DNA of 64,000 bases, from assembly GCA_903827975.1 (NCBI GenBank), contig CAIKKG010000027.1:5403-69402 (forward strand), in the 5' to 3' direction. Below, in pieces: positions 6,098-64,000 of this stretch. The translations under genes were made by a program, and so were the position numbers. The stretch's first letter is position 1. Every line of letters begins with the position of its first letter. This stretch comes from an uncultured bacterium (GTDB lineage: Bacteria; Patescibacteriota; Minisyncoccia; UBA6257; GWB1-50-10). Below the pieces are notes generated by a model, which was given only the letters and a program-made list of their open reading frames with translations, was not told the DNA's origin and did not search any database.

Positions 6098-6283
6098 TTC
6101 ATGTGTCAGACAACTAACAATAATCCAAGCTGAGCGGTTTTTAAAGCTCTCAATTCTTCCGAATGGCTTTGTGTTTGTGCACAAAACGACTAATCCCTGA
6201 ATCCAACTTGGTAGTCAGACTCAAGTAAAGGAGTAAAAGCTTGAGTTGACTATACACAACATACCCCGATTTGTCAATGTGAT

Positions 6284-14339: not shown

Positions 14340-14343
14340 TTTA

Positions 14344-16788: not shown

Positions 16789-16859
16789 CGGAGCGTAGTA
16801 TACCGGCAGTACACCTACCTTGGGCGTAGGCAGACCGGGTTCAATTCCCGGCGCTCCGA
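16789..16859 (+). tRNA. tRNA-Pro(TGG), C1:G72
   Basis: CGGAGCG...CCTAC-CTTGGGC-GTAGG...CCGGG-TTCAATT-CCCGG-CGCTCCG-A. Confidence 0.7.
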
Positions 16860-16900
16860 CTAACAAAAAAATAAGACCTAATTCGGGTCTTATTTTTTAT

Positions 16901-17067
16901 CCCGCGCTGGGAATTGAACGGGAAGGGGGTCGGGGAAACAGGAGTTTCCACGTGGCGGAAGTATTGAAACCGCTGGGTTTCAAAAATTTTGCGAATACAA
17001 AATTTGTTTACTTCCCGGCGCTCCGACTAACAAAAAAATAAGACCTAATTCGGGTCTTATTTTTTTA
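16901..17067 (+). repeat. tRNA-Pro-associated 3' module, core family 1 (copy A)
   Basis: Terminator 16871-16898. Inverted copy of the tRNA 3' part, cccgcgctgggaattgaac, at 16901-16919. Core at 16920-17010. 55-bp direct repeat of the tRNA 3' end plus terminator at 17011-17067. Confidence 0.6.
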
Positions 17068-17114
17068 TCCTCATTTGGATTTTGTTAACACCTCAATAAA
17101 AAAAACTCAACGTA

Positions 17115-41951: not shown

Positions 41952-42009
41952 TCAGACATATGATGAGTAACATTGTGCTTAGTTCTTTTCATCTCTATTA
42001 TTAATAACA

Positions 42010-43830: not shown

Positions 43831-43843
43831 ATTAAGCTATTTT

Positions 43844-44701
43844 ATGAATAAAAAAGTATCGGTTTCTCTCATAATTCTTACTCGGAACGAAGAAATGCAT
43901 TTGAAAAGGTGCATTGATAGTGCGCGTAATATAGCTAGCAATGTTATTGTTGTGGATTCATTTTCTTCTGATAAGACTGAGTCAATTGCAAAAGAGTGTG
44001 GTGCAGAATTTGTTCAGCATCAATTTTTAAATCAGGCTGATCAGTTTAATTGGGCATTGGACAACCTCGAAATAAATGGGGATTGGATATTGAGATTAGA
44101 TGCGGACGAATTTTTAACAAAAGAACTATCTGATGAAATTTCGGAAACATTAGAAAATATTTCAGAAAATATTTCAGGCTTCTCTATTAAGCGTCGAGTG
44201 CATTTTATGGGGCGCTGGATTAGACATGGAGGATATTATCCATCATGGTTTGTACGATTATTTAAAAAAGGGAGGGGAAGGTATGAGGTTAGGGAGGTTG
44301 ATGAACATGTAGTCATTAGTGATGGTGAGATCCAAAATCTAAAGAACGATTTTGTTGATAGCAATAAACAAAATTTAGAGTGGTGGATTGGGAAACAGAA
44401 CAATCATTCCTCAAGAGAGGTTCTGGCATTAATAAATAAAAGTAAGGATAAGGAGCTTAAACCAAGTCTTTTTGCTGGACAGGCGGAACGCAGAAGATGG
44501 CTCAAGGAAAAGCTATTTATGAGTTCCCCGAAGTTTATGCGTTCATTTTTATATTTTTTCTATCGTTATTTTTTGAGACTCGGTTTTTTGGACGGGGTGG
44601 AGGGTCTAATATTTCACTTTTTGACAGCATTCTGGTACAGATTCCTCATAGATGCTAAGCTATTTGAATACCAAAAGGCGATAAAAAATAATAATAAATA
44701 A
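43844..44701 (+). CDS. family 2 glycosyltransferase
   Basis: VSLIILTRNEE...VVDSFSSD...LDADE. Confidence 0.7.
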   Translation: MNKKVSVSLIILTRNEEMHLKRCIDSARNIASNVIVVDSFSSDKTESIAKECGAEFVQHQFLNQADQFNWALDNLEINGDWILRLDADEFLTKELSDEISETLENISENISGFSIKRRVHFMGRWIRHGGYYPSWFVRLFKKGRGRYEVREVDEHVVISDGEIQNLKNDFVDSNKQNLEWWIGKQNNHSSREVLALINKSKDKELKPSLFAGQAERRRWLKEKLFMSSPKFMRSFLYFFYRYFLRLGFLDGVEGLIFHFLTAFWYRFLIDAKLFEYQKAIKNNNK

Positions 44702-44709
44702 TCAATAAA

Positions 44710-45666
44710 ATGGAAAAAAAGGTATTGGTTGTTGGTGGTGCTGGTTATATTGGTGGTGCTGTAACTGATTTTTTGAAAGAGAAAAATATTTCATTTACCG
44801 TATATGACAGCCTTTTTTATGAGGATCGTTTTTTTAAACAAGTAGATTTTATTTATGGAGATGTGCGAGACCACGAGAAATTAAAAGAAATTCTTCCTAA
44901 TTACTCCCATGTTATTTGGTTGGCGGCAATAGTCGGGGACCCAGCATGTAAGATTAGGCCTGATTTAACAATCGCAATCAATCAAGACGCAGTTGAGTGG
45001 CTTTCTAAAAATTATGACGGGAGAATTGTATTTATGTCTACGTGTTCTGTGTACGGGAAAAACGATAGTGTTGTAAATGAAGAGAGTGAATTAAATCCAC
45101 TTTCTTTATATGCAGAAACAAAAGCTAAGGCAGAGCAGTTTCTAAAAAATAAGAATAGTTTAATTTTCAGATTGGGGACGGTTTTTGGAATTTCAGATAC
45201 ATATTCTCGACCACGAATGGATTTAGCGGTTAATTATATGACTGCAAATGCGGTAGTGAAGGGCAAACTCTCTGTTTTTGGAGGATCCCAGTGGCGTCCA
45301 TTTATTCACGTCAGAAAGGTTGGCGAGGTAATAGCTAATTTTGTTGACACACCAATTACAGGAATATTTAATCTTGCCTCATTTAATTATCAAATTAAAG
45401 ATCTAGCTGAAGAAATTGGAGCGATAACCGGCGCTGAAATAGTATATGCCGACCAGAAGTTTCAAGATGAGCGCAATTATAACGCAACAAATGAAAAAGC
45501 TTTAAAAGCTAATATGCTCGGCTCAGAAAAATCATTTACTATTCATGATGGCGTTGACGAGATTTATAAAATGGTAAAATCAAAGCGTATAAAATATACA
45601 GAAAATGACGTTTATTTTAATGAGCGTCACGTAGCAAATCTAAATGAAAATGGAGAATTTAAATAA
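44710..45666 (+). CDS. NAD-dependent epimerase/dehydratase
   Basis: Rossmann fold VLVVGGAGYIGG. YxxxK-type SDR. Confidence 0.7.
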   Translation: MEKKVLVVGGAGYIGGAVTDFLKEKNISFTVYDSLFYEDRFFKQVDFIYGDVRDHEKLKEILPNYSHVIWLAAIVGDPACKIRPDLTIAINQDAVEWLSKNYDGRIVFMSTCSVYGKNDSVVNEESELNPLSLYAETKAKAEQFLKNKNSLIFRLGTVFGISDTYSRPRMDLAVNYMTANAVVKGKLSVFGGSQWRPFIHVRKVGEVIANFVDTPITGIFNLASFNYQIKDLAEEIGAITGAEIVYADQKFQDERNYNATNEKALKANMLGSEKSFTIHDGVDEIYKMVKSKRIKYTENDVYFNERHVANLNENGEFK

Positions 45667-45670
45667 TAAT

Positions 45671-46111
45671 ATGATAAAAATAATTGATGGTGGTTTGGCC
45701 GCTGATGATAGAGGTGTTCTTTCATTCGCGAATGAGTTTGGTTTTGAGGGGGTTAAGCGATTTTATATGGTTGAAAATTTTTCAACCGATGTAATAAGGG
45801 CGTGGCACGGGCATCTAAAAGAGGCCAAATATGTAATGGTTGTTTCTGGGTCTGCCATTGTTGCAGGGGTCCAGATGAGTGATTCCCAAGCCCCAGATAA
45901 AAACGCAAAAGTTGAAAGGTTTGTGTTGTCTGCAAGAAAGCCAAACGTTATTTTCATTCCTGCTGGCTATGCAAATGGATTCAGACCACTCGAAAATGGA
46001 ACAAAAATAATATATCTTTCTACGTCAACCCTTGAAGAATCTAAGGGTGATGATTATAGGTTTCCAGCTGATTATTGGGGTGAAAAGGTTTGGCAAGTAG
46101 AAAATAGATAA
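45671..46111 (+). CDS. FdtA/WxcM-like cupin sugar 3,4-ketoisomerase
   Basis: Motifs RAWHGH and FIPAGYANGF. Start moved to MIKIIDGG to avoid overlap. Confidence 0.5.
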   Translation: MIKIIDGGLAADDRGVLSFANEFGFEGVKRFYMVENFSTDVIRAWHGHLKEAKYVMVVSGSAIVAGVQMSDSQAPDKNAKVERFVLSARKPNVIFIPAGYANGFRPLENGTKIIYLSTSTLEESKGDDYRFPADYWGEKVWQVENR

Positions 46112-46113
46112 CC

Positions 46114-46995
46114 ATGAATAAAAAAATATTATTGTTAGGTTCGACTGGCATGCTTGGAAATGCAGTTTACGCGGTTCTTAAGGATAAGTATTCACTTGTT
46201 CTTACTGCCCGCTCTAAGGATAAGTTGGATTTATTAGAAAAAGCGCATGGTGGCACAGCGGCACATTCATTTGTTGAATTTGATGCGCTTAAGATTTATG
46301 ATGATTATTTGGCAAAGAAGGGTTACCGTGGAGAATACCTAACCAATTTTTTGAAAGATATTGGGGAGGTTGATTATGTGATAAATGCAATAGGCGTAAC
46401 CATTCCTTATGCGATGGAAAATCCTGCAGGCACATTTTTCATTAATGGGGCGTTGCCTCATATTTTGGCAAATGTATTTGGGGAAAAATTAATTCACATC
46501 ACGACCGACTGTGTATATAACGGCAAGGAGGGATTTCCATATGATGAGAACTCCCCTAAAACTCCTATGGATATTTATGGACTTTCGAAAAGTCTTGGGG
46601 AGCCACTAAATTGTCTTACAATTAGAACCTCAATTATTGGAAGAGAGGTTGAGGGATTTTCCAGTCTTCTCGAATGGTTTTTAGCTCAAAAAGGTAAGGA
46701 GGTGAATGGGTTTGCGAAGCATTTTTGGAATGGAGTCACAACAAAAGAATTTGGAAAGATTTGTGACAAGATAATTTCAAATCCTGAACGATATCCAAAG
46801 AAAGGTATTTATCATGTTTTTTCTAACTCTGTTTCTAAATTTCATATGGTTACGAAATTTGAAGAGAAATTTAAAATTGGGTGTACGATAAAAGAAGAGA
46901 CCACCAATGAATTAAATCGCACCATGGGTACGGTAAAAGAATTGAATGGTCTTTTAGGTGTTCCAAGTTTTGATGAAATGATTGATGATTTATAG
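46114..46995 (+). CDS. RmlD-like NAD(P)-dependent sugar reductase/epimerase
   Basis: LLLGSTGMLGNAV Rossmann fold. Confidence 0.6.
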   Translation: MNKKILLLGSTGMLGNAVYAVLKDKYSLVLTARSKDKLDLLEKAHGGTAAHSFVEFDALKIYDDYLAKKGYRGEYLTNFLKDIGEVDYVINAIGVTIPYAMENPAGTFFINGALPHILANVFGEKLIHITTDCVYNGKEGFPYDENSPKTPMDIYGLSKSLGEPLNCLTIRTSIIGREVEGFSSLLEWFLAQKGKEVNGFAKHFWNGVTTKEFGKICDKIISNPERYPKKGIYHVFSNSVSKFHMVTKFEEKFKIGCTIKEETTNELNRTMGTVKELNGLLGVPSFDEMIDDL

Positions 46996-47003
46996 ACCTG
47001 ACC

Positions 47004-48218
47004 ATGGAAAAGTTTAAACTTGTTACATTTTTAGGAATTCGACCCGATTATATTCGGATGTTCAAGATCATTAAATTGCTTGACGAGGGTCAGGAGAAAC
47101 ACAGCTATGAGCATATCTTGGTTCATTCTGGACAGCATTACGACCCCGAACTATTCGGAAATTTTTTGGAAGAATTTAATATTAGAAAACCAGACATTGA
47201 TTTGGGTGTTGGATTAACTTTGAAAGAGAGGGGAGTTTCAAATCATGCATATCAATCAGCACTTCTTTCTGAGCGAACATTCGATATGTTAGAAAAGGTA
47301 AAGCCAAGTGCAGTTTTATATTTGGGAGATACAAATACGGTTCTTTCTTCTGTGGTTGTTGCAAGGTCTGGCTATCCGGTTATTCACGTAGAGGCTGGTG
47401 GTAGAAGCTATGATTGGCGTATGCCTGAGGAAAAAAATAGGATTGTTATTGATCATTTATCTGATGCTCTTTACAGCTACTTACCAAGATATAAAGATAT
47501 TCTCGTTGGCGAGGGTGTAGAAGATTTTCGTATTAAGGTTGTTGGTAATGTAATTGTTGACGCTATAAACGAATACATGGATAAGGTTGATGCGAGCGAT
47601 ATTGTTAATACGCTTGGTGTGATAAATAAAGAATTTATTCTAGTCACTTTGCATAGAGAGGAAAATACAACAAATAAGGAAATTTTTGAAAATAAGTTAA
47701 CCGATATTCTTAGATTTGCTAAAGATAAAAATTTGAAAATAGTATTTCCTGTTATGCCAAGAGTCGCCGCTGCAATAGAGAGGTTTGGGCTGGTGAACCT
47801 ACTCGACAATCCCATTTTTATAAAAACAAAACCACTTGGATTCTTTGATTTCCTAAATTTAGAAAAGAATGCACGACTCATTGTGTCTGACAGTGGAACA
47901 GTTCAAGAGGAGGCACTTATTGTTGGAACACCTTGTGTTATTGCACGTCGTTCGACCGAGCGACCTGAAACTATTAATGTTGGTGCCACTATTCTTGAGG
48001 GTATTGAGGGTCCAAACACGCTTTATGAAAAAATTGGAGAAGCTTTTGATATGAAAATAGGTTGGGATAAAACTATTTTGAATCCCGATGGCGGCAGTCC
48101 AAGTGAGAGGGTGTGTGAAGATATTTTTGCAAAAATTAAGTCGGGGTATTTTTACACGTCTCGAGAGTTTGAGATTATTAAATCAAAAGAAAGCGTGCGA
48201 CAAGCTTATCACAAATGA
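47004..48218 (+). CDS. wecB: UDP-N-acetylglucosamine 2-epimerase
   Basis: Motifs HVEAGGRS and SDSGTVQEEA. Confidence 0.75.
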   Translation: MEKFKLVTFLGIRPDYIRMFKIIKLLDEGQEKHSYEHILVHSGQHYDPELFGNFLEEFNIRKPDIDLGVGLTLKERGVSNHAYQSALLSERTFDMLEKVKPSAVLYLGDTNTVLSSVVVARSGYPVIHVEAGGRSYDWRMPEEKNRIVIDHLSDALYSYLPRYKDILVGEGVEDFRIKVVGNVIVDAINEYMDKVDASDIVNTLGVINKEFILVTLHREENTTNKEIFENKLTDILRFAKDKNLKIVFPVMPRVAAAIERFGLVNLLDNPIFIKTKPLGFFDFLNLEKNARLIVSDSGTVQEEALIVGTPCVIARRSTERPETINVGATILEGIEGPNTLYEKIGEAFDMKIGWDKTILNPDGGSPSERVCEDIFAKIKSGYFYTSREFEIIKSKESVRQAYHK

Positions 48219-49051
48219 GAAATTTAATACGAAAAATGGTTAAGAATATCATCGTGTCCCTTCCTTACTTGGCGCAGGCTTTTTTAAGTAATGTGCGTAC
48301 TAGTATAAAACTATTGTTCGATAAGGGAATAAGCCCAAATGTATCCAATCAGTCGCCAATACCCAAGGTGACTGTGATTTGCTTAATTTATAAGTCAACG
48401 GGTTATGCCGATTTTGTTTATAAATCTTTCATAAAACACACAAAAGACGCAGAGTTTCTTTTTGTGGCAAACGATGCGACTGAGAAGGTTAAGGAATATC
48501 TAAAGTCTAATAATTTACCACATGTCATTTTTGACAACGAAGACCCTACAGAACACTATCTAAAGCGTGTTTATAGAGCTTATAATTATGGAGTTTCCAT
48601 TGCTCGTGGTGATGTGGTTGTTTTGGTTAATTCTGATATGGCTTTTTCCGATGGTTGGTTAGATAGTCTGGTGAAAAATCTAGATAGAAACAGAATTGTT
48701 TGTTCAAGATTTGTGGAATCAGGCAAGTTGTTGGGCGGCAGACTTGCGATTGTTAAGAATTTTGGTATGTCATATAAGGATTTTAACGATGAGGCATTCC
48801 AGAATTATATAAAAAATAAAAGAAGGCCCGAACTTCACTACGGCGGACAATTTATGCCATGCGCCATTTATAAGGACGTGTTTATGCAAAGCGGTGGGTA
48901 TCCAATAGGAAATCGAAAAGAGGATGATGGTACCGAAACACCAGGCGATATAATTTATTTTTACGAAGTATTGAAACCGATGGGAATTATTCAATACACT
49001 GATTTTAATAGCATTATATATCATATTCAGGAAGGTGAGTTAGATGAATAA
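48215..49051 (+). CDS. putative glycosyltransferase (GT2-like)
   Basis: VTVICLIYKS...VNSDMAF pattern. Confidence 0.35.
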   Translation: MRNLIRKMVKNIIVSLPYLAQAFLSNVRTSIKLLFDKGISPNVSNQSPIPKVTVICLIYKSTGYADFVYKSFIKHTKDAEFLFVANDATEKVKEYLKSNNLPHVIFDNEDPTEHYLKRVYRAYNYGVSIARGDVVVLVNSDMAFSDGWLDSLVKNLDRNRIVCSRFVESGKLLGGRLAIVKNFGMSYKDFNDEAFQNYIKNKRRPELHYGGQFMPCAIYKDVFMQSGGYPIGNRKEDDGTETPGDIIYFYEVLKPMGIIQYTDFNSIIYHIQEGELDE

Positions 49052-49059
49052 ATATAATA

Positions 49060-49707
49060 TTGGTATTATATAAAAAAATGAAAAAACTTATTATAGCCCC
49101 ACACATAGATGATGAAGTTCTTGGATGTACAAGCGTGTTAGATAAAGATGCTTTTGTATATTATTGCGGCATTGACGAGAGTAAATTACCATCGGATCCA
49201 GGTCATAGAATTCCAATTGATGAAAGGGTGAAGGAAGTTGAGAAAGTGGCAGCTTTTTTGGGTTTTCAATACAAAATTAACTTTGAAACTAAAGTAAATT
49301 TTTATGTTGAGCAGGAATTAATTGGCGCACTCGAGAATCTTATTAATGAAATCAAGCCTGAGTATATCTATTTACCTCATTTCGGATACAACCAAGATCA
49401 TAGAACCGTATTTAGTGCTGCGCAGGTTGCCTTGCGACCACATGACAAAAACTTTTTTATAAAGAAAGTTTTGGTCTATGAGGCCATTCATGATTTTGCA
49501 TGGTCTTATGATGAGTTGCGTGTAAATTGTTTTGTACCGTTAGATTTGGATAGGAAAATAAAAGCTAACGCCCTGCACGCATCCCAAGTAAGGGGCATGA
49601 GAAGTCCCGAAACCCTTGAGACTCTTGCCCGTTTACGTGGTGTAATGAATGGAATAGATTATGCCGAAGCTTTTAAAATTTTACGATGGGTTGAGAGTCA
49701 CAATTAA
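49060..49707 (+). CDS. PIG-L/LmbE family N-acetylglucosaminyl deacetylase
   Basis: IIAPHIDDEVLG motif. Confidence 0.65.
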   Translation: MVLYKKMKKLIIAPHIDDEVLGCTSVLDKDAFVYYCGIDESKLPSDPGHRIPIDERVKEVEKVAAFLGFQYKINFETKVNFYVEQELIGALENLINEIKPEYIYLPHFGYNQDHRTVFSAAQVALRPHDKNFFIKKVLVYEAIHDFAWSYDELRVNCFVPLDLDRKIKANALHASQVRGMRSPETLETLARLRGVMNGIDYAEAFKILRWVESHN

Positions 49708-49790
49708 TCAACATTTTTTGAACTTAGTTTTGACTAACGAAAAGTGCTATGATACTTTGCGTAGAGTAACTTATAAAGAGGAAACGAGCT

Positions 49791-50675
49791 ATGGTAGAGA
49801 AAAAAAAGATAGCATTTGTATTGTATCGAGCGTGGGCATATGAAATTTATCAGGAGATTTTGGCCTTTCAAAAAGAAAACCCCAACTTTCTTATTCCAGC
49901 GCTCATTACCACTCCATCCGCAGAGTTTAGTTTTAGTGAATCAAACTCACATATTTATGTGGTGGAGGGCAATGATGGGAATAGTATTGATAAAATATTA
50001 GCCGAGAATGATATAGATGTTGTTTTTTATTATGGGTGGTCTTGGATTGTAAAAGAGCCAACCCTATCCCGATATCTTTGTATGTGTTTGCATCCGTCAC
50101 CACTTCCTAAATACCGCGGTGGCTCACCGATTCAAAATCAGATTATTGCCGGAGAAGTAATATCTGCGGTGTCCGTGTTTAAGATGGGAGTTGGTATTGA
50201 TGATGGGGATGTATATGCACAGGCGTCGATTTCGCTTGAAGGAAGTCTCACAGACATCTTGGGACGCGTCGCAATCACCGGCACAAGAATTACAAAGAGG
50301 TTTATAGAAGATCTCTTAAGTAGTGATCTGGTTTTTATTCCCCAGAACAGCCTTAAGGATAGCCCTCCCCATAAACGGAGAAAGGCGAATGAAAGCGAGA
50401 TTAAATTAAAAGATCTCGCAATTACACCATATATAAAGATTTATAATATGGTGCGGGCGCTTGCCGACCCCTATCCGAATGCATTTATTGTTTTTCCTAT
50501 TAGTGGAAAAACTTTATATATTCAAGAAATTGAAAGGTGTGATGAGGTTTCTATAGATGCACTTGTAATAAATAATGGTTATCAGCAAATAACTGCTAAT
50601 ACCCAGTCGCCTATATATATATGCCTAGTTGATGGATTTGCAAGAATTACTAAATATAGAGTAGAAAAAAACTAA
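49791..50675 (+). CDS. formyltransferase-domain protein (sugar N-formyltransferase candidate)
   Basis: HPSPLPKYRGGSPIQNQII matches the formyl_trans_N catalytic region. Confidence 0.55.
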   Translation: MVEKKKIAFVLYRAWAYEIYQEILAFQKENPNFLIPALITTPSAEFSFSESNSHIYVVEGNDGNSIDKILAENDIDVVFYYGWSWIVKEPTLSRYLCMCLHPSPLPKYRGGSPIQNQIIAGEVISAVSVFKMGVGIDDGDVYAQASISLEGSLTDILGRVAITGTRITKRFIEDLLSSDLVFIPQNSLKDSPPHKRRKANESEIKLKDLAITPYIKIYNMVRALADPYPNAFIVFPISGKTLYIQEIERCDEVSIDALVINNGYQQITANTQSPIYICLVDGFARITKYRVEKN

Positions 50676-50810
50676 CCCCGCTTAATGCGGGGTTTTATTA
50701 CATTTATGGTAAATATAAACATCAACTATACAATATCTTGCTGAATAGATGGTCAGGCGATATACTACTTAAATCGTGCCCTGTAGCAATAGTGCGCGGA
50801 AAAATCAACT

Positions 50811-52013
50811 ATGCCTGGAAGCTCTGTGTTGGGAAAAGATGTCGTTTTTGACTGGCTTTCCCAAAATGAATCAAATATTAAAGACATATTGGATATTGGG
50901 CCCGGAATGGGTACTTATTTTGATTTGTATAATTCACGATTTCCAAATTCAAGTTGGGATTGTGTAGAAATTTGGGAACCATATTTATATCAGTTTTTTC
51001 TTCATAAGAAATATGAAAATATTTATAATATTGGCGCAAATGAATTCATCCCTTCAAAAAATTATGACCTTGTAATACTGGGAGATGTGTTAGAACACAT
51101 CGATAAGTCAGAGGCAATCAAATTAATAGACGCATTACGAAATTATTGTAAATATTATATTATATCTTTGCCATTGGATGCAGAAACCGGCGTTGGTGCT
51201 GGCACTGGAGACGTGGACTGGGGTAATCCATTCGAACTGCATAGAGCTAAGTGGACCTTTGATGAATTTATTAATATGCATTTTCATGATGAGTTGGTGG
51301 TCAAAAAAAAATATAAAGAATTGGCAGTATTCATTGGGGAAAGTTCTATATATCAAGAAATTAGTACAAAAGTAAGCGGCACAAAAAAATATGAATTTAG
51401 AGGAAGTGCATATAAGTTATACCATGGATACTATCTTCAATTAGCGAGTATTTTTAGGAGAATTAAGAGTAAAATAATTAAAGAGCTTCCAACAATAAAA
51501 AAATATACACCAAAATTTATTAAAACAATTATAAAGAAAGCTAGATATATTATATTTCATCCAATTATTATGATTACAAATCCAGGAAGAAGATTAAACA
51601 TTGGCGCTGGCGTGGATAAACTCCCTGGCTTTCTTCACATAGATTCAGATCCAACAACGGGGCCAGACATTGAGCGAGATATCGAAAAGGGTTTGCCGTT
51701 TGATGATAATTCGGTTGATGAAATCAAGTGTTCCCATGTTTTAGAGCATATCAAGGACTTACTTTTTGTTCTTCGGGAGTTTTACAGAGTTTCAAAAAAT
51801 GGAGCTAAGATAACTATTATAGTTCCTCTTATGGACGCGTCCGATATGACCCATATTAGATTTTTTGATGAGAATACTTTTAGAACGTTGACTGAGTCAG
51901 AATACTGGAATAAGCCATATTACTACGTAGGTAAATATAAAGAGGAGTCTAGGTCTTTTCGACAGTTGAGCACCTGTAGAGATATGACTCTAGTTTTGCG
52001 GGTTATTAAGTAA
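50811..52013 (+). CDS. two-domain class I SAM-dependent methyltransferase
   Basis: ILDIGPGMGTY and LNIGAGVDKLPG. Confidence 0.55.
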   Translation: MPGSSVLGKDVVFDWLSQNESNIKDILDIGPGMGTYFDLYNSRFPNSSWDCVEIWEPYLYQFFLHKKYENIYNIGANEFIPSKNYDLVILGDVLEHIDKSEAIKLIDALRNYCKYYIISLPLDAETGVGAGTGDVDWGNPFELHRAKWTFDEFINMHFHDELVVKKKYKELAVFIGESSIYQEISTKVSGTKKYEFRGSAYKLYHGYYLQLASIFRRIKSKIIKELPTIKKYTPKFIKTIIKKARYIIFHPIIMITNPGRRLNIGAGVDKLPGFLHIDSDPTTGPDIERDIEKGLPFDDNSVDEIKCSHVLEHIKDLLFVLREFYRVSKNGAKITIIVPLMDASDMTHIRFFDENTFRTLTESEYWNKPYYYVGKYKEESRSFRQLSTCRDMTLVLRVIK

Positions 52014-52023
52014 TCTGTGATTA

Positions 52024-52944
52024 ATGAAAACCTATCTTATTAATGAGGACATACGAGGTATTGTAAGCAATGAAGAAACTGTTTGGTCTGTATTAGCTGA
52101 AAATCTTGATGGAACGAGCGGCGTGGCTCTAAATGACTTAAAAGAAGATTTAACAGCGCTCTTGAATCGTGAAAATCCCGATGTTGTGGTTTGTAATGCA
52201 ATAATGGGAAATTTTTATACTCCAGCTCACACAAAGAGAGTCGTTTTTTTGCAGGACAATTTTTTTGTAATGCAAAAAATACTTCCATGGGACTGGAAGA
52301 GGGTTGTTAGGTCAGTGCTAAATCATTTTAAGGATCCATATGTTACCAAATATAAATTGCAAATTGATGCAATTAATAAGGCTGATAAGGTTGTCGTTGT
52401 CTCTAAAGATATAGCACGCGCTTACGGCTTAACTGATGCAGAAATTATACCCATTGGTACGGATACTAACTTGTTTAAGCCTCTGGACAATAAAGTGGAG
52501 CTTCGAAAAAAATATGGCGTTCCTTTAGAAATGAATATCAAAATATTCATTGGAAGTACTCACGCGGTAAAAGGCTTCGATATTCTAGAGAACGAAATTA
52601 GGAATGACACAAAAAGTTTTTATATCCTCGTACTAAAGGATAAATATCGACCAATGTTAAAATTTAGTAATGTAAAAGTATTTCAGAGAATTGGTCAGGG
52701 TACTCTCGCTGAGTTAATGAACTGTGCTGATCTGTGTGTTGGAAGAAGCAGGGTTGAAACACTTTGGCTCGGACCCATTGAGGCAATGTTTTGTGGTATA
52801 CCAGTCGACGTTACGCCTGTTGGGATTTTTGCTGATTGGAAGCCTGCAAATATAGACCCAAGAAAGGAAGCTTTTGAGTTAGGTTTAGATAGGGAAACAA
52901 TGATTAAACGATGGGGGTCACTTATTAGTAAAATCGTTGAGTAA
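52024..52944 (+). CDS. GT1/GT4-like glycosyltransferase
   Basis: E..W.GPIEAMFCGIPV motif. Confidence 0.45.
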   Translation: MKTYLINEDIRGIVSNEETVWSVLAENLDGTSGVALNDLKEDLTALLNRENPDVVVCNAIMGNFYTPAHTKRVVFLQDNFFVMQKILPWDWKRVVRSVLNHFKDPYVTKYKLQIDAINKADKVVVVSKDIARAYGLTDAEIIPIGTDTNLFKPLDNKVELRKKYGVPLEMNIKIFIGSTHAVKGFDILENEIRNDTKSFYILVLKDKYRPMLKFSNVKVFQRIGQGTLAELMNCADLCVGRSRVETLWLGPIEAMFCGIPVDVTPVGIFADWKPANIDPRKEAFELGLDRETMIKRWGSLISKIVE

Positions 52945-52986
52945 TGATTTTAAGCGCTTCACTTTTCCATTGGCATTTGATATCGT

Positions 52987-54057
52987 TTGGTAAAGAACAA
53001 TATATACATTATGAATGATAAAGAAATAGCTAAAGCAATTAAAGGCAAGACAATTCTTATAACCGGTGGCACTGGGTCCTTTGGAAATGCAGTTGTTGAA
53101 AAGTTGCTACCACTCGGTCCGAAGGAAATAGTAATATTTAGCCGTGACGAGAAAAAACAGTTTGATATGGCAAACAAGTTTGCCGACAAACGAGTAAGGT
53201 TTTTGATTGGAGATGTGCGTGATGCAGGTAGAGTTACTTATATCATGCAGGGGATTGATCTCGTGTTTCACGCCGCTGCCTTAAAGCAGGTTCCTAATTG
53301 TGAATTTTTTCCAATGGAGGCGGTACTTACGAATGTGGTTGGTGCTCATAATGTTATAAGTGCCGCAACTCATCATGGAGTTGAGCGCGTAGTAGTTCTT
53401 TCTACGGATAAGGCTGTTTATCCTATAAATGCTATGGGTTTAACGAAAGCACTCATGGAGCGAGTCATGATTGCTGTTTCACGTGAAAAGCGTAGCAAGA
53501 CAGTGCTATGTGGTACGCGATACGGAAATGTTATGCATACGCGTGGCTCAGTTATTCCTTACTTTGTAGAACTCATGAAGGCTGGGAAACCAATTAAGGT
53601 TACAAATGGTGACATGACGCGATTCATGATGTCACTTCCGGAGTCTGTGGATTTAGTATTATATGCGCTATCGCACGGTAAGGATGGTGAGATGTATGTG
53701 AGAAAAGCACCCGCAGCATCTATGGATAATTTAGCAAAAGCAATGGTTTCTTTGTTTAATTACAAGAATGGCATTGAAGAGGTTGGGGTTCGTTTGGGAG
53801 AAAAAACGCACGAAACGCTTGTTTCAAGTGAAGAAGCAGTACGCGCCGAAGATTGTGGAAAGTATTTTATGGTAAAACCAGCCGTTCCAGGCATGGATAT
53901 TAAAGAATTATATTTTAAGAATAATAAGAAGAATAGAATTATTCCAGTTGAGGGATACACTTCTGCAAATACTGAGCAATTGACCATTGAGGAGATTAAA
54001 AAGTTACTTCTCACACTTCCTGAAATTAGACAGGTATTAAAAGAATTTAAGAAATAG
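52987..54057 (+). CDS. UDP-GlcNAc 4,6-dehydratase (PseB/CapD family)
   Basis: KTILITGGTGSFGNAV. SDR family. Confidence 0.7.
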   Translation: MVKNNIYIMNDKEIAKAIKGKTILITGGTGSFGNAVVEKLLPLGPKEIVIFSRDEKKQFDMANKFADKRVRFLIGDVRDAGRVTYIMQGIDLVFHAAALKQVPNCEFFPMEAVLTNVVGAHNVISAATHHGVERVVVLSTDKAVYPINAMGLTKALMERVMIAVSREKRSKTVLCGTRYGNVMHTRGSVIPYFVELMKAGKPIKVTNGDMTRFMMSLPESVDLVLYALSHGKDGEMYVRKAPAASMDNLAKAMVSLFNYKNGIEEVGVRLGEKTHETLVSSEEAVRAEDCGKYFMVKPAVPGMDIKELYFKNNKKNRIIPVEGYTSANTEQLTIEEIKKLLLTLPEIRQVLKEFKK

Positions 54058-55324
54058 TAAAAAAATTATTTAGGAGAGTGGACAGAATTAGGGAATTTTT
54101 CTTGGTATCAAAATCAGATAAATATGCTTTTCCTGCATTTTCGATTAATGCGATACTTTCTTTTTTGTTTGTAACTATTGCCTCAATTGCTTGCTTTAAT
54201 TTTTCTGGATTGTGTTCTTCAACTATATAAGCACATTGCTTATTTTTCACGTATTTCACGAGAGCAGTATCGCCAGGTGCGTAGGTAAGTATCGGTTTTC
54301 CAGTGGCAAGATAGTCAGTCAATTTTCCAGGTGTCGCAGTTTGGATTATTTCGGGAGCCTTTGTATTCCAGGAAAGTGGGAGAAATAAAATATCCGCACT
54401 TGCTTGTAGTGCTGGCATTTCTTGTGGTGTCGCGGAATTTATTTTTATTTTATTGTTTTCTATAATTCCAAGTTTGGAAAGATAATCTTTTGGGCTTGGT
54501 GTGTAGATATTGAATGTAATTTCAAAATTCATCTCATTTATAGCCCCAATCATTTCTTTTATTGCTTCAATTTGTGGCCAATAGATGCGTCCTGAAAAAA
54601 GTATTGAGTATGGTGGTGCTGGGTTATACTCTACGGACGTTTTTGAAAGCTCATGTTCTTCTGGAGGAACTGAATTATGAATAACGGCAAACTTTTCGCG
54701 CACAGCTTCCCCGTATCGTTTTATGTAGAGCTCTTTCGTAGTTTCGTTAGTAACAATAATTTTAGAGGCAGAAGCTATGAGTTTTGGCTCATAGTATTTT
54801 GCCAATATGCCTCCGGGAAAAGGGAATAGGTTCCCCAAGTACAGATCATAAAGATGTATAACAAAAGGAATCTTTGTTTTCTTGTGAAGCTTATATGTTC
54901 CAATAAGTGCAGGACCAAAATCCGAAACTCCCATAAGAACCTCTATTTTCTCTTTTTTTATAACCTTTGCGCCCGCTTTTACAATCATCATAATCTGACC
55001 AAAAATTAGCAACGGTCCTAGAATAATCTTGACCAAGCCGATTCGTTTAACGAGGTGGCGCAATTTACTTATGGCGCTTCGCTGATTCGATTCCTTAGTT
55101 AGTTTAGTTCTATCTCTCTGCTCATCACTAACATTTGAATTATCATAAAAGTAATATTTTCCAGGTAACCACTCGCCATGTTTTGCGGAGTAATTATCAA
55201 TTCCATAGTAGCTGGTGAGGATAGAATATGAATCTGTTGGTAGTTGCGAGAATAGAGCATACATATTTTTGGGTCCTCCGATGGATGGCGGTGCCCACGT
55301 TGAGATGATAAGCGTTTTTTTCAT
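54047..55324 (-). CDS. family 4 glycosyltransferase
   Basis: GT-B fold, 425 aa. Confidence 0.55.
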   Translation of the reverse strand: MKKTLIISTWAPPSIGGPKNMYALFSQLPTDSYSILTSYYGIDNYSAKHGEWLPGKYYFYDNSNVSDEQRDRTKLTKESNQRSAISKLRHLVKRIGLVKIILGPLLIFGQIMMIVKAGAKVIKKEKIEVLMGVSDFGPALIGTYKLHKKTKIPFVIHLYDLYLGNLFPFPGGILAKYYEPKLIASASKIIVTNETTKELYIKRYGEAVREKFAVIHNSVPPEEHELSKTSVEYNPAPPYSILFSGRIYWPQIEAIKEMIGAINEMNFEITFNIYTPSPKDYLSKLGIIENNKIKINSATPQEMPALQASADILFLPLSWNTKAPEIIQTATPGKLTDYLATGKPILTYAPGDTALVKYVKNKQCAYIVEEHNPEKLKQAIEAIVTNKKESIALIENAGKAYLSDFDTKKNSLILSTLLNNFFTIS

Positions 55325-55325
55325 A

Positions 55326-56798
55326 TTAGAGTGCTGTTTCTTCCCGCATTTTGAATACCGTTATGATTTGTCTAAATACGTCGTCTTTGAGAGCAGTAAG
55401 AGTTAATATATATATCATTCCTGAAGTTATTATATTTAGTATTACATGAATCCCTAGAGCATTTAGCACGATAGTTACAATGCCCATTATAAGCCCTGCA
55501 ACTAAACTCTTCCAGACATATTTGGCGGTTTTAAAATTATTAATACGCTTCATTGTTCTCCAAATTATTAGAAACGCGACGCCTTGCGAAATGACTGTAG
55601 CAATTGAAGAACCCAATATACCCATTTTTGGAATAAGTAAATAATCTAGTAATGCATTTCCTAATGCCCCGAGTGTTAGGGACGTGATAAGCGTTTTTTG
55701 CTCATTGTAGGCGAATATGGAATTAATAATAATTGCGCCTGGGAATGAAAGAATGATTGTTAATAGAAGCAATGCGAACGCTGGCCCCGCGCTTACATAA
55801 TCACTTCCGAAAAGGAAAAGTAATATTGGAGAGGCAAGTATGGAGCCACCTATAAAGATTGGTATTGCCAGTGATAGTGAGAATGGAACAATTTTTTCCA
55901 TTATTTGTGACACACGCGCATCCTCCTTTTTTGCGAGGCGTGAAATAAGTGGAAATATACTCGTTGCAATCATAGTCGGTATAAGATATGCGAGACCAAC
56001 AATACGAATTGCTACGGAATACCTTCCCACATCATTAGCCCCATTTAACCAACCGATCATAACCGCGTCCGTGTTGGTTGTAATCGCTCCGAGTAATCCC
56101 ATAACCGCAAAAGGAGTTGCCTCTTTAAGTATGTGTAAAGCGTACGACGCATCAAATAAACGCCAGAAATTTCTTAGATAACCCTTTAAAAGAATAAACG
56201 AAAGTATGAATCCTATTCCCGATCCAATCATATACCCAGTCATGAGACTAAGAGCGCTCTTTTTTAGTGCTAGTGCCCCAAACCCGAATAATGTTACAGC
56301 GATACTTGTTGTCAGGTTTATAGCCGCCTCCGTTTCCATTTTTTCTTTTGCTCGTGTAATACTGAAACCGAATTCACGGAGTGCATCAAATGCGATGAGG
56401 AGTGCCGCGAGAATCATTATGTTATTAACCCCTTTAATTGCCGAAAAGAATGGAGAAATGAACGCAACAAGTACGACACTAATTCCCACAAGTATTAATT
56501 TGAGAACAAGTGAAGTGGCCAGATTTTTCTCTAATGTTTTCGGATCTTTTGCAACTTCGCGAGTAAGTATTGGGCCCATACCAACATCTGCAAAAATAGA
56601 AAAGAGAGCTGCAAGGCTTAACGCATATGAAAAAATTCCATAGTCTGTTGTGCCGAGAACCCTGGCTGCGTATATGATAATTATCGCTTTAACGACCCGA
56701 CTAGAAAATGTTCCAATACCAAGCCAGAATGTGTTTTTTGCAACAGTTTGGCTGGCGTGTTTATTTTCGAAAAGGAAGGATTTTATTTTCTTAATCAT
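55326..56798 (-). CDS. polysaccharide flippase (Wzx/MOP superfamily), copy 1
   Basis: 490 aa, about 12-14 TM. N-terminal TVAKNTFWLGIG. Confidence 0.65.
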   Translation of the reverse strand: MIKKIKSFLFENKHASQTVAKNTFWLGIGTFSSRVVKAIIIIYAARVLGTTDYGIFSYALSLAALFSIFADVGMGPILTREVAKDPKTLEKNLATSLVLKLILVGISVVLVAFISPFFSAIKGVNNIMILAALLIAFDALREFGFSITRAKEKMETEAAINLTTSIAVTLFGFGALALKKSALSLMTGYMIGSGIGFILSFILLKGYLRNFWRLFDASYALHILKEATPFAVMGLLGAITTNTDAVMIGWLNGANDVGRYSVAIRIVGLAYLIPTMIATSIFPLISRLAKKEDARVSQIMEKIVPFSLSLAIPIFIGGSILASPILLFLFGSDYVSAGPAFALLLLTIILSFPGAIIINSIFAYNEQKTLITSLTLGALGNALLDYLLIPKMGILGSSIATVISQGVAFLIIWRTMKRINNFKTAKYVWKSLVAGLIMGIVTIVLNALGIHVILNIITSGMIYILTLTALKDDVFRQIITVFKMREETAL

Positions 56799-58286: not shown

Positions 58287-59606
58287 TTATTTGGTATACG
58301 AAGTGAATAAATATTTTACTGTGCGGACGAAGATTAGAAAATCTAAAAAGAGTGAACGATTCTTAATGTAGTACACATCATAACAAAGCTTCTCATATGC
58401 TTCTTCAAACGATGCACTTGGTCTGAAGCAGACCTGAGCCCATCCCGTGAGTCCCGGTTTAATCACATGGCGGATATCGTAGTAGGGGAATTTCTCGTAT
58501 TGGGCGGAGAGCTCTGTGCTCTCTGGTCTTGGTCCAACGAATGAAATATCATTTTTTAAAATATTTATGATTTGTGGAAGCTCATCTAAATGCGTGTAGC
58601 GTAAGAGTGCGCCAACCTTTGTGATGCGTGAATCATTTTTTTCTGTCCATGCTGGCCCACCCGTATTTGTGCGCATGGTTCTGAATTTATAAATAGTAAA
58701 TTTCTTTCCATTCTTTCCTGTTCGATCCTGTGTATAAATTACCGGACCCTTTGAGGAAAGTCTTATGAGCACAGCAATTAAAAGCGCTGGAAGAATAAAT
58801 ATTGCACCTACTAGAAGTGCGCCGAAAATATCCTCTGCGCGTTTTATCATGTCATAAGCTGGGCGTCGCGTGGAAATATTCTCAATAAACCAATTCTCCT
58901 CAAGTTCTTTTAATGGAGCCTTCTCAAAAATAGATTCATAAAAATCTGAAAAACTCACAACGGAGATTTCAAGTGGGAGTAATTTATATACCGAGCGGAC
59001 TGCTGAGAAGTCTTTTGAAATGCTGTGTTGCATTACGACGAGCTCAGCATTTTTTAAATGAATAATTTCTGCGAGTGAATCCAATTTTTCTTTTGTTGGA
59101 ATTTTAATCCATTCAACAATCTTGTAATCACTGTTCTTGTTCTCCTCAATGTATTTTGCAACATCATCTGTAAGAGGTGAGTCGCCGATAATAATTACGT
59201 TGAGTGCCCCAGACTTTGAAAAGTGAAGTGCTAGCATTCTCCAAAAATATGAAAATATGAGAAATATTCCCGCGAATAAAAATAGATTTGCGCGCGGGGT
59301 AAATTCAAAGAATTTAGGGAAGAGATAGAAGGCCATTATCGAGCCCATCGTTCCAATTACTATAGAGCGGAAAAGTGCTCTGAAAAGCCAGGCGCGATTT
59401 CCGAATGAGCGGTACTCGTAGAGGTTATTCCAATAGAAGGCTAGGCCCCAGATTAAGAGGATTGAGGTGAATGGGGGAAAGTGTACTAAAAAGCCCAAAC
59501 CAAGTGTGGAGGGGTTTTGATAGCGCACAATGATCATTGTGGCGAGTGCTGCGTAGAATACGAGGATGTCTCCCACAAGGAAAAGCCCCTTTTTTAGTGT
59601 ACCCAT
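58287..59606 (-). CDS. undecaprenyl-phosphate sugar phosphotransferase (bacterial sugar transferase family)
   Basis: C-terminus DELPQIINILKNDISFVGPRPE. Confidence 0.75.
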   Translation of the reverse strand: MGTLKKGLFLVGDILVFYAALATMIIVRYQNPSTLGLGFLVHFPPFTSILLIWGLAFYWNNLYEYRSFGNRAWLFRALFRSIVIGTMGSIMAFYLFPKFFEFTPRANLFLFAGIFLIFSYFWRMLALHFSKSGALNVIIIGDSPLTDDVAKYIEENKNSDYKIVEWIKIPTKEKLDSLAEIIHLKNAELVVMQHSISKDFSAVRSVYKLLPLEISVVSFSDFYESIFEKAPLKELEENWFIENISTRRPAYDMIKRAEDIFGALLVGAIFILPALLIAVLIRLSSKGPVIYTQDRTGKNGKKFTIYKFRTMRTNTGGPAWTEKNDSRITKVGALLRYTHLDELPQIINILKNDISFVGPRPESTELSAQYEKFPYYDIRHVIKPGLTGWAQVCFRPSASFEEAYEKLCYDVYYIKNRSLFLDFLIFVRTVKYLFTSYTK

Positions 59607-59779
59607 ATAATTAGGCTTATATTACCTTGTTTTTTACCTATTTGGAAGTAAAAAGGCATTGTGTCAAATTGACAAAACACGCCTTTAGTGCTATTATTTT
59701 TACAGTTCAACGGTTCGCTTTTGAGGCCCCGCATAGTGCGAGGATAAGAAAGTGGCCACTAATGTAATAGGGAGGTAGC

Positions 59780-60316
59780 ATGAACGGGAATAAAACATCC
59801 ACTGTAATGGCACTCGCACTTTCGAAGGCGGGCGTGAACGAAACAAAAAACACGTTCGTGAAGGTTGCGGACGTTCGAATCGCAGTTCCAACGAGCTGGA
59901 ATCACGGAACCGTGATTTCCGAGTTCAGCAAGGAATTCAGGAGCCAGGCCTTCAAGGTCGACAAGGATATCACCGATAGCCTGATCTCCACTCAGGGCTT
60001 CGTCCCTGGTCGCCAGTACAGGATGAGGCTGTTCAGTCACAACTCTGCCAGCATGGCATCCTGTCTCGAATTCCTCGAGTCTCAGGGCGCACTTCTGGTG
60101 GGTGCTCATGGCCTGGTGGCTGCAGCAATGCTGAAGCCCTACGAGCTGGTCATCAAGACCGGCAAGGAGGTCTTCTCGCTCGCCGAGCTTAAGGTCCTGC
60201 CGGTCTACGAGGATGGGACCCCGATGGTCCCCATCATGACCCGAGGCTTCTTCGGCCTCGTGCCGATCGACGCCATCTCGAGCGAGCATCTCATGCTCTG
60301 CGTCACCACAAAGTGA
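59780..60316 (+). CDS. hypothetical protein encoded by a high-GC (about 58%) segment, likely horizontally acquired
   Basis: Clean 178-aa ORF, RBS gggagg, terminator at 60335-60363. Codon third positions are G/C-rich, unlike neighbouring genes. Confidence 0.55.
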   Translation: MNGNKTSTVMALALSKAGVNETKNTFVKVADVRIAVPTSWNHGTVISEFSKEFRSQAFKVDKDITDSLISTQGFVPGRQYRMRLFSHNSASMASCLEFLESQGALLVGAHGLVAAAMLKPYELVIKTGKEVFSLAELKVLPVYEDGTPMVPIMTRGFFGLVPIDAISSEHLMLCVTTK

Positions 60317-60406
60317 CTCAGAGTGCAAAATACCGAGCCCCATTAATTTGGGGCTCTTTTTTATTTATTTATTTGACGAGAAAAATGTATGGGGTAAACT
60401 TTATGA

Positions 60407-61147
60407 ATGGAAGAAAATAAAAATGAAACAAGTTCGAGGGGTAATGATAAGATGTTGCCAGCAAGTATTATAATTGCAGCAGTTCTTATTATGGTTGGTT
60501 TGGTTTATAACGCTGGTAAAAAAGATTTGTCTGCTGGAAATCAGGCTAATCAGTTAGCCGCAGCACAAAATCAGCCGACTCAGGAAACTGGCTCACCGGA
60601 AAAGGTTAGAGCATTTAGTAAAGAGGATCACGTTCTTGGAGATCCAAATGCTCCTGTAAAATTCATTATGTTTTCAGATTTCGAATGTCCATATTGTAAG
60701 ACATTTCATGAGACAGTGAAAAAATTATCAACTGAGTATGAAGGGAGGGTAGCATTTGTATTTCGTCAGTTTCCAATGCATTCAAAATCAGGAACTGAGG
60801 CTGTTGCGACAGAATGTGCAGCATCATTTGGAGGAAGCGAAAAGTTCTGGGCATTTGCAGATGAGATATTTGCAACAACTCCTTCAAACGACGGACTTGA
60901 CCTAGCACAACTTCCAAAGATTGCAGTAAAACTAGGATTCGATGAGGCTGCATTTAATACATGTCTTAAGAGTGGAAAATTTGAAGACAGAATTAAGGCA
61001 GACATGAAGGACGCATCAGCTGCGGGACTTCAGGGAACCCCATACACTGTTATCGTTGCACCGAGTGGAAATGTAATTACTGTTAACGGAGCATATCCTT
61101 ACGAGGCAGTAAAAGAGAAAATCGAACAGGCGTTAAAACTTAAATAA
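60407..61147 (+). CDS. DsbA-family thiol:disulfide oxidoreductase
   Basis: FECPYCKTFH CxxC. N-terminal TM. Confidence 0.75.
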   Translation: MEENKNETSSRGNDKMLPASIIIAAVLIMVGLVYNAGKKDLSAGNQANQLAAAQNQPTQETGSPEKVRAFSKEDHVLGDPNAPVKFIMFSDFECPYCKTFHETVKKLSTEYEGRVAFVFRQFPMHSKSGTEAVATECAASFGGSEKFWAFADEIFATTPSNDGLDLAQLPKIAVKLGFDEAAFNTCLKSGKFEDRIKADMKDASAAGLQGTPYTVIVAPSGNVITVNGAYPYEAVKEKIEQALKLK

Positions 61148-63326: not shown

Positions 63327-64000
63327 ATGGAAACTAAAAATCCTTGGGAAAAAATAAAATCATTTTTCACCGAACCCACACCTGGGCAACACAAAGATAT
63401 TCCGCATATCCCAGAAAACATCAAACAGAATTTAGAAGTTAATAAAAAGCCTAAAGAGGTTAATTTTACTGACGAGCCAAAGCCATTAGAGCAGTTCAAA
63501 TCATTTTTCAAGAAACTCGTAGAGGAACCAAAAAAAGAAACTCCTCATGCGCCAGAGGTTAAGAAAGTTGAAGCTCCGATTGTTAAACCAGTTGAGGTAA
63601 AGAAATCCACAACACCAAATCCATTTTCAAATTGGTTTAAGTCAGAGCCAAAGAAAGAAATGCCTCATGCACCAGAGGTTGTTAAGCACGCGCCTGAGGT
63701 AAAGAAGCCAGTGACACAAAATCCATTTTCTACATGGTTCAATTCTGTTATGAAGAAAGAAGCGCCAAAAGTAGAGGCACCAAAGAAAGAAACTCCTCAT
63801 GCGCCAGAGGTTAAGAAAGTTGAAGCTCCAGTTGTTAAACTAGTTGAGGTAAAGAAACCCGCAACACCAAATCCATTTTCAAATTGGTTTAAGTCAGAGC
63901 CAAAAAAAGAAATGCCTCATGCGCCAGAGGTAAAGAAAGTTGAAGCTCCAGTTATTAAACCTGTCTCCGAGATAAATAAATCATTTGAAAAAGTAACCTC
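63327..64000 (+). CDS. repeat-containing protein (3' partial at window edge)
   Basis: Tandem peptide repeats ETPHAPEVKKVEAP.VKPVEVKK..TPNPFSNWFKSEPKKEMPHAPEV. Confidence 0.4.
   Translation, partial: METKNPWEKIKSFFTEPTPGQHKDIPHIPENIKQNLEVNKKPKEVNFTDEPKPLEQFKSFFKKLVEEPKKETPHAPEVKKVEAPIVKPVEVKKSTTPNPFSNWFKSEPKKEMPHAPEVVKHAPEVKKPVTQNPFSTWFNSVMKKEAPKVEAPKKETPHAPEVKKVEAPVVKLVEVKKPATPNPFSNWFKSEPKKEMPHAPEVKKVEAPVIKPVSEINKSFEKVT

Follow-up and report, generated by a model that had tools for sequence, protein, structure and literature searches.

Does a single GC-rich gene in an otherwise AT-rich genome have to be a recent import? The question is raised by a 64,000-nucleotide stretch of DNA from an uncultured bacterium of the Patescibacteriota (GenBank assembly GCA_903827975.1, contig CAIKKG010000027.1, forward-strand positions 5,403 to 69,402; hereafter, the window), in which an earlier note, made from the letters alone, had singled out an open reading frame (ORF) for 178 amino acids (aa) at 59780-60316 as a likely recent horizontal acquisition, on the strength of its GC content and its G/C-ending codons. 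We compared this gene with its orthologs, its protein family and its strain variants. The explanation that we favour, with slightly better than even confidence, is that it is an old, fixed relative of the target genes of diversity-generating retroelements (DGRs), standing without a retroelement of its own and with a GC-richness that is maintained.

Composition and age of the gene

The gene, its signals and its surroundings are laid out as follows.

59669..59697, plus strand: sigma-70-type promoter, TTGACA-17-TG-TATTAT (with TG extension), matching the consensus at 11 of 12 positions
59698..59779, plus strand: 5' leader of 82 nucleotides (nt), with a hairpin at about 59716-59754 (core GCAUAGUGC), a conserved GCCACUAA box and the ribosome-binding site (RBS)
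59770-59775, plus strand: RBS, GGGAGG
59780..60316, plus strand: coding sequence (CDS), 178 aa, a real ORF; residues 1-25 are weakly conserved and residues 26-178 form an alpha/beta domain
60200..60313, plus strand: region equivalent, by alignment to the DGR target P0111, to the variable region (VR) of such targets; shortened, and without the W...CLLCFC end
60335..60363, plus strand: intrinsic terminator from a terminator scan, GAGCCCC(A)...GGGGCTC, with an 8-bp GC-rich stem (hairpin 60335-60356) and then a T-run
58287..59606, minus strand: Bac_transf initiating sugar transferase (Pfam PF02397, E = 2.6e-59), the last gene of a glycan cluster and the divergent upstream neighbour
60407..61147, plus strand: DsbA/thioredoxin-like gene (Pfam Thioredoxin_4 and DSBA), the downstream neighbour, with its own promoter
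59759..60343, minus strand: antisense shadow ORF of 194 aa, not a gene, without family matches

The gene is as compositionally isolated as had been described. The ORF has a GC content of 0.556 and its conserved domain one of 0.575 (0.40 over the whole window), and 300-nt windows reach 0.56-0.60 at this gene only, falling back to 0.39 within at most 100 nt on either side. GC at third codon positions (GC3) is 0.74 versus a mean of 0.336 (standard deviation 0.045, maximum 0.449) in the 55 other ORFs of the window, a z-score of about 9, with the DsbA-like gene, 90 nt away, at 0.26. Third positions of the gene are A 0.12, C 0.42, G 0.32 and T 0.14 (host 0.31, 0.17, 0.19 and 0.33, respectively). Most of the GC excess lies at third positions and is synonymous; codon positions one and two are shifted as well, which points to a pressure at the level of DNA or RNA and argues against translational codon selection, a cause that we rejected on this ground and because no other gene of the window exceeds a GC3 of 0.45.

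Relatives of the locus (numbered here with L) were sought with a six-sequence family alignment, with the adjacent DsbA gene serving as the synteny anchor. A family member lies directly upstream of DsbA in L030/L031, L032/L033 and L005, with the same layout of promoter, leader, CDS and terminator. DsbA in these relatives is 66% and Bac_transf 71-73% identical to its counterpart in the window, and the orthologs, 37-52% identical to each other, form one clade in the family tree, apart from the clade linked to DGRs. The insertion site is flanked on the left by Bac_transf, conserved in all relatives, and on the right by DsbA. In L034 and L035, where DsbA, at 55-56% identity to that of the window, is 55-58% and Bac_transf 59-70% identical to those of all the others, the order of flippase, Bac_transf and DsbA is kept, and the gap of 170-185 nt between the latter two is an empty site, with no family match even at an E value of 10. 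Because of these empty sites in two more distant relatives, a single old insertion, in the clade's ancestor, of a cassette made up of promoter, leader, CDS and terminator is likely, the alternative being two losses. The gene is present in all variants of the population. No mobility gene, tRNA or flanking repeat was found beside it (the closest tRNA is 38 kb away), and collections of phages, plasmids and viral contigs held no relatives of it.

Read from synteny, the gene is a lineage-specific insertion and an old resident, not a recent import. Acquisition at some point thus stays plausible, in view of the two empty sites, but the word 'recent' finds no support, as the same site is occupied in at least three other lineages. 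The earlier note had itself named the same GC-rich gene at the same locus across all relatives as a result that would speak against its reading, and within the clade with 66% DsbA identity this is what was seen. The gene also evolves much faster than its neighbours: between L030 and L033, DsbA is 85% identical and the family protein 52%.

Over this divergence the composition has been kept. The four orthologs have a GC content of 0.575-0.62 and a GC3 of 0.74-0.82, in hosts with a GC content of 0.40-0.46 and a GC3 of about 0.34-0.49. Between 35% and 65% of third codon positions differ between orthologs, approximately saturation for a two-state G/C site, and they still end in G or C; GC3 exceeds even that of GC-richer outgroup genomes (0.57-0.69, within an overall range of 0.34-0.69 for the hosts measured). 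No decay of a donor signature towards the host was seen in older copies, all four orthologs lying at the GC3 values given above. Since a donor signature would decay over such third-position turnover, the composition is being maintained, with a gene-specific force acting on it. We therefore did not retain the step from GC content to transfer: on these comparisons, the GC-richness is a gene-specific equilibrium at the level of DNA or RNA and no relic of a donor.

The signals around the gene, its RBS and terminator among them as previously noted, are shared with the orthologs. The TTGACAAA...GAGATAATG promoter is also found 5' of those in L030, L032 and L033, and a hairpin with T-run follows the stop codon likewise in L030, L032 and L005. 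The leader can be aligned to the leaders of L030, L033 and L005; its hairpin is preserved, with some pairs altered on both sides (three sequences compared), and the hairpin core GCAUNGUGC and the GCCACUAA box are common to the L030/L031, L032/L033 and L005 orthologs. The stability of the leader hairpin alone has no significance (z = -0.12). Together, promoter, leader hairpin, RBS and terminator predict a self-contained, monocistronic transcription unit between the glycan cluster and the DsbA-like gene, the position that had been described. As a family-wide element the leader motif was rejected, 5' hairpins of other clades being different. A promoter of their own and a hairpin right before the RBS were also observed in family genes of L002, L007, L008 and the L004 paralogs, and the pre-RBS hairpin of the DGR-linked clade (for example, GCAAGAATTTTCTTGC plus CCTGGCAATCCAGG) is unlike the Jorgensenbacteria leader.

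Relationship to targets of diversity-generating retroelements

The protein had been said to carry no recognisable motif, and searches of curated libraries bear this out: Pfam, NCBIfam, PHROGs, PADLOC and PDB sequences gave nothing significant. A relationship to Pfam DUF1293 and PHROG 1410 (phage single-stranded-DNA-binding protein) was considered and rejected (Pfam, 14.4 bits versus a cut-off of 27, E = 0.041; PHROG, E = 0.0067), both of the sub-threshold matches, to DUF1293 and phrog_1410, being limited to residues 52-92. A word-indexed search of 5.8 billion proteins returned as its sole match a hypothetical protein from a Candidatus Jorgensenbacteria metagenome-assembled genome (MAG), 98% identical and in the same gene order. 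The window genome is that of a Candidatus Jorgensenbacteria, a member of the Candidate Phyla Radiation (CPR). The family surfaced by exhaustive phmmer only, not by the word-indexed search: among 1.84 billion cluster representatives it has 109 relatives, nearly all of 155-270 aa, with an outlier (P0071, 2654 aa) that contains six repeated matches to query residues 62-94. No Pfam match was found in any of 61 family members. The window protein keeps the family motifs VPxxYxH, PGxxY, LVGAQG, SFDE and VP and has every invariant or near-invariant residue of the family (P37, F26, F49, P76, G77, G108, G111, S133 and P151), and the family hidden Markov model (HMM) matches it with E = 1.8e-48. The homology check by BLASTP that had been proposed for it aligns the whole domain with a proven DGR target, P0111, at E = 3e-17. 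Elsewhere in the family, three tandem paralogs without a DGR occur in L004 (6659-8522), and one ORF of 393 aa in L018 (824-2002) fuses two family domains.

Adenine-only mismatches between two copies of a repeat are the hallmark of a template repeat (TR) and VR pair. Downstream of P0111 in L002 come, in this order, a 126-nt repeat of the target's 3' end, an Avd gene and a reverse transcriptase (RT), and 22 of the 22 mismatches between the repeat copies fall at adenines of the downstream copy, which places the VR at L002 8566-8691. Mismatches at template adenines account for 14 of 15 in L008, 15 of 19 in L010, and 19 of 21 and 7 of 8 in L009. The cassette order in L002, L008, L009 and L010 is target, TR, avd (minus strand) and RT, and at L009 7053-10492, on a Paceibacterota contig, one DGR RT is flanked by two targets that share one TR. 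The DGR-linked relatives lie on Patescibacteria-type contigs (labelled Paceibacterota, Saccharibacteria or Jorgensenbacteria). L008 (CAYHWE010000001.1) is binned as 'uncultured Gammaproteobacteria' and has a CPR-type DGR cassette with a family target, which suggests mis-binning. From these cassettes, found at four independent loci, and contigs, the family is a CPR-specific, uncurated one without a Pfam entry, and it provides a target scaffold for DGRs. CPR genomes have abundant DGRs, cellular elements that make up a clade specific to the CPR and that mostly have one target, next to them (PMC8144416, PMC5758913, PMC11661182); the literature searched describes neither this target family nor a syntenic derivative that lacks the retroelement.

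The window copy differs from these cassettes. Within the 64-kb window, no stretch of 59780-60365 recurs in direct or inverted orientation, which leaves no candidate TR, and phmmer with the RT and Avd proteins of L002, which finds matches in L002, L008, L009 and L010, finds none in the window, L001 or L024-L033. The flanks of every ortholog likewise contain no RT, Avd or TR. The VR-equivalent region (60200-60313), which spans the last three beta strands of the structural model, shows no hypervariability, being identical across seven assemblies of the population. The GC-rich 8-bp hairpin at 60335-60356 with its T-run could equally be a standard terminator or an inverted repeat of DGR type, the initiation of mutagenic homing site being definable only with a TR. 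By the tests that define a target, the window gene is a homolog of DGR targets and not a demonstrated target. Because TR, RT and variable-region variability are all absent at this copy, it is most likely a fixed, non-diversifying scaffold copy, and we infer a loss or absence of DGR targeting.

The fold of the protein was modelled with AlphaFold2 from the family alignment (predicted local distance difference test (pLDDT) 85, predicted template modelling (pTM) score 0.80), which gave an alpha/beta domain with 22 disordered N-terminal residues; a single-sequence model of the window protein (pLDDT 42) was of no use. Its top Foldseek matches, in both the PDB and the viral (BFVD) libraries, are C-type lectin domains, at a weak E of 0.1-0.3 and template modelling (TM) scores of 0.31-0.45, and known DGR variable proteins are not among the 50 matches listed. 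On the model, the protein is possibly a C-type-lectin-like small domain of a binding type, which would imply a ligand-binding function. A signal or lipoprotein-like N-terminal segment is present in 14 of 114 family members.

Possible causes of the GC bias

On the reading that we prefer, the gene would have entered the region between Bac_transf and DsbA once, long ago, and would have been inherited vertically afterwards without a neighbouring retroelement. The fixed scaffold copy would evolve fast, by ordinary substitution and allelic recombination, while a GC-rich equilibrium is held in every lineage as synonymous sites turn over. Selection for a GC-rich, unusually stable transcript would be the cause, with GC-biased conversion as the main alternative. 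The predicted folding of the transcript is consistent with such selection. The whole transcript folds at -255.8 kcal/mol compared with -224.4 ± 8.1 for dinucleotide shuffles (z = -3.9). Against shuffles of synonymous codons, in which protein and codon usage stay the same, the four orthologs score z = -2.84, -3.47, -2.48 and -4.13, and none of the 60 shuffles of each folds as well as the native sequence. Among 43 controls, which comprised AT-rich genes of the window and GC-rich ones from related genomes as well as DGR targets and further family members, the mean z was about -0.4 and 2 of the 43 were at -2.5 or lower. The excess predicted folding of the four orthologs suggests selection on the transcript, and we hold selection for a stable GC-rich transcript to be the preferred cause of the bias with low confidence.

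Several observations weigh against this account. The folding null is wide, with an ordinary formyltransferase-like gene of the window's glycan cluster (49770-50672) at z = -3.8. The excess is diffuse: an RNAalifold consensus of the four orthologs is weak (about -36 kcal/mol, with 9 of 80 pairs changed on both sides, a count that has no control), and a conserved RNA structure within the CDS is not supported. The antisense strand also folds in excess (z = -1.6 to -4.1). The GC-rich relatives L002, L007 and L008 show no folding excess, and folding therefore cannot account for GC-richness across the family. Beyond folding, the search for a DGR in the host covered 64 kb, a scope with which a remote DGR acting in trans is still compatible; the C-type lectin matches are weak also by their probability (0.33-0.38 at the TM scores given above); and a signal peptide, looked for in the window protein, was not found.

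The main alternative is that the GC-richness stems not from selection but from a recombination hot spot with GC-biased gene conversion, or from another local mutational bias, with folding as a side effect. We consider this possible, if rather unlikely. The effect on all three codon positions fits a DNA-level pressure, the folding excess is diffuse and its position is not conserved, and strain variation at the locus is high. One European Nucleotide Archive (ENA) scaffold matches the window at 100% identity across 9.6 kb. Among seven assemblies of the population, there are four haplotypes of the gene, with all 13 variable sites within 59694-60334; in the comparison with the NCBI MAG, 8 of the 16 differences over 7.2 kb fall inside 640 nt (Poisson P = 1e-4), and polymorphism density at the gene is about ten times that of the flanks. 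All four gametes occur on either side of the gene in the four-gamete test, a sign that strains have exchanged the segment by recombination, which makes GC-biased conversion a serious alternative, and the adjacent glycan cluster has itself been swapped between near-identical strains. Against biased conversion stand the very sharp boundaries, with the DsbA gene, 90 nt away, at a GC3 of 0.26, and the synonymous shuffles, which keep composition and still fold worse than the native sequence in four orthologs, a result that composition by itself would not predict; the polymorphisms are unpolarised and do not give a direction.

Two further observations concern strain variation around the gene. In the L027 haplotype, five substitutions lie within 9 nt at 60185-60193 (GAGCTTAAG to AGTCTTTAC; E136S and K138Y). 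They fall in a quasi-palindrome shortly before the VR-equivalent region and could stem from one multi-nucleotide event, for instance a template switch or micro-conversion. Further away, window positions 42000-56575 and L001 positions 1-6795 hold wholly different sets of glycan-synthesis genes, although the two sequences are about 99.9% identical from 56710 onward. The junction, at 56577-56709, where 39 differences occur over 133 nt, coincides with the 3' end of a flippase gene (55326-56798), and the exchange looks like an O-antigen-style replacement by recombination.

A different possibility connects the composition with the retroelements themselves. All five DGR-adjacent homologs have a GC content 0.09 to 0.16 above that of their hosts and are depleted in adenine at third codon positions (A3) even outside the VR, in a small sample with several loci that end at contig edges; the RT and avd genes beside them are host-like in composition, and so, mostly, are family members without a DGR in the available flanks. 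Whole-gene GC enrichment and adenine depletion at synonymous sites could be a lasting, target-specific DGR footprint, an idea that we regard as doubtful. The Jorgensenbacteria gene, with the strongest shift, would then be either a remote target or a 'fossil' one with a GC-rich, hyper-structured transcript on which selection still acts, which we hold to be doubtful to the same degree. Were such a footprint general, DGR targets, past ones included, could be recognised by their composition alone, and retrohoming, or protection from off-target adenine mutagenesis, would shape the whole target gene beyond its VR; the association of DGR adjacency with a target-only shift can be tested on existing DGR catalogues. 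GC-rich segments beside the mutagenic part of the TR and VR, with a GC-rich inverted repeat downstream, have been described, and atypical GC content of whole DGRs has been taken as a sign of transfer (PMC5758913). The literature searched gave no account of a whole-gene GC3/A3 shift confined to the DGR target. A 5'-to-3' gradient of GC3 towards the VR-equivalent region was seen in the window gene and not in L030 or L005, and the idea was dropped.

It is in our view very unlikely that a DGR located elsewhere in the genome, with its RT, Avd and TR, still diversifies the gene in trans, the composition of the gene being a requirement or by-product of retrohoming. Its full-length homology to proven targets, the shared compositional shift of the five DGR-adjacent homologs, the inverted repeat after the stop codon (as found downstream of many VRs; PMC5758913) and the 64 kb of genome covered all leave room for it. 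However, the VR-equivalent region is invariant where a target should vary, and shortened, without the conserved VR end of DGR-linked members; strain differences lie outside it, none of those seen are adenine-specific, and the C-terminal 38 codons are without any difference. Moreover, the members of the L030/L031 and L032/L033 pairs, which come from different samples within each pair, score identically with the family HMM, CPR DGRs are reported with single adjacent targets (PMC5758913), and there is no TR within 64 kb.

Recent acquisition from a GC-rich donor, with the GC content as an unameliorated donor signature, is largely refuted and in our judgement highly improbable. Its appeal lay in the strikingly atypical composition with sharp edges at the gene ends and in the empty homologous site of two more distant relatives, and atypical GC is commonly taken as evidence of transfer, DGRs included (PMC5758913). 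It is opposed by the GC-rich occupants of the same site at 66% DsbA identity, by their monophyly, by third positions that are saturated and yet richer in G and C than those of any host measured, and by the absence of mobility genes, tRNA and flanking repeats at the locus and of phage, plasmid or viral matches.

Least credible of all is that the region is not, or not solely, protein-coding and specifies a structured non-coding RNA, or that its real gene is the antisense ORF: a transcript predicted to be unusually stable and several public gene calls on the antisense strand would fit, but the protein family matched by the sense frame has AT-rich members too, whose antisense frame cannot be open, all invariant residues are retained and the AlphaFold2 model is confident, Rfam has no match in or around the gene and the consensus RNA structure is weak, and the antisense ORF is without homologs and is broken in L030 by a TTA codon.

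That ORF stays open for one reason: the sense frame, in which codons ending in A are scarce, has no TTA, CTA or TCA. In most public assemblies, gene callers annotated it (194 or 241 aa) in place of the true gene (L025, L026, L027, L029 and L032), and it was chosen in four more ENA assemblies as well. These miscalls probably explain the lone close match in the 5.8-billion-protein index; antisense miscalling in public assemblies conceals the family from protein-level searches.

Other features of the window and comparison with known systems

Elsewhere in the window, Rfam identifies a group I catalytic intron at 18709-18951 (70 bits, E = 8e-16), and small ORFs near it with a GC content of about 0.5 (19007-19378) may overlap RNA genes. 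Duplications beside tRNA genes (16839-17082, 16909-16968 and 21340-21399; 77-nt and 60-nt repeats, 87-88% identical) include the tRNA 3' end and a terminator-like hairpin in their copies. At 63443-64000, and in L001 at 13740-15200, tandem repeats of about 150-250 nt lie in a gene for a large unannotated protein (1216 aa in L001), and the arrangement of their copies appears to be strain-dependent.

Like a horizontally acquired ORFan or islet, the gene at 59780-60316 stands alone, with deviant GC content and codon usage, sharp edges and an empty site in distant relatives; unlike one, it is syntenic through deep divergence, has not been ameliorated, is richer in GC than every related host and has no mobility signature. 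It is a clear counter-example to reading deviant GC as recent transfer, a GC3 of about 0.75-0.8 having been held through deep divergence among other genes at 0.34-0.49. At the level of fold, the top structural neighbours of the AlphaFold2 model in PDB and BFVD are animal and viral C-type lectin-like domains (CTLDs; LOX-1, tetranectin and poxvirus), but at E values of 0.1-0.6, TM scores of 0.31-0.45 and identities of 8-12%, which makes the fold a lead from modelling.

With the CPR DGR lineage ('DGR clade 2' of Roux et al. 2021, PMC8144416; the CPR cluster, PMC11661182), the DGR-linked relatives of the gene share Patescibacteria contigs and a compact cassette, in agreement with the cellular CPR DGRs of one target that have been reported, whereas the window locus has the target-type gene alone. 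A further comparison is with the DGR variable proteins in which a C-type lectin fold bears the VR at the C terminus (Bordetella phage Mtd, Treponema TvpA, nanoarchaeal AvpA and Thermus TaqVP). The window protein is unlike these in having no sequence similarity to the FGE-sulfatase or CLec Pfam families or to PDB chains, and the window copy differs in its shortened, invariable VR-equivalent region and in the absence of TR, RT and Avd from its 64 kb. Its homologs, however, resemble them in a VR of about 120 nt at the extreme 3' end, a TR that differs at adenines and an adjoining avd and RT, and the best, if weak, fold matches of the window protein are to C-type lectin domains. The gene indicates that a DGR target scaffold also persists without its retroelement.

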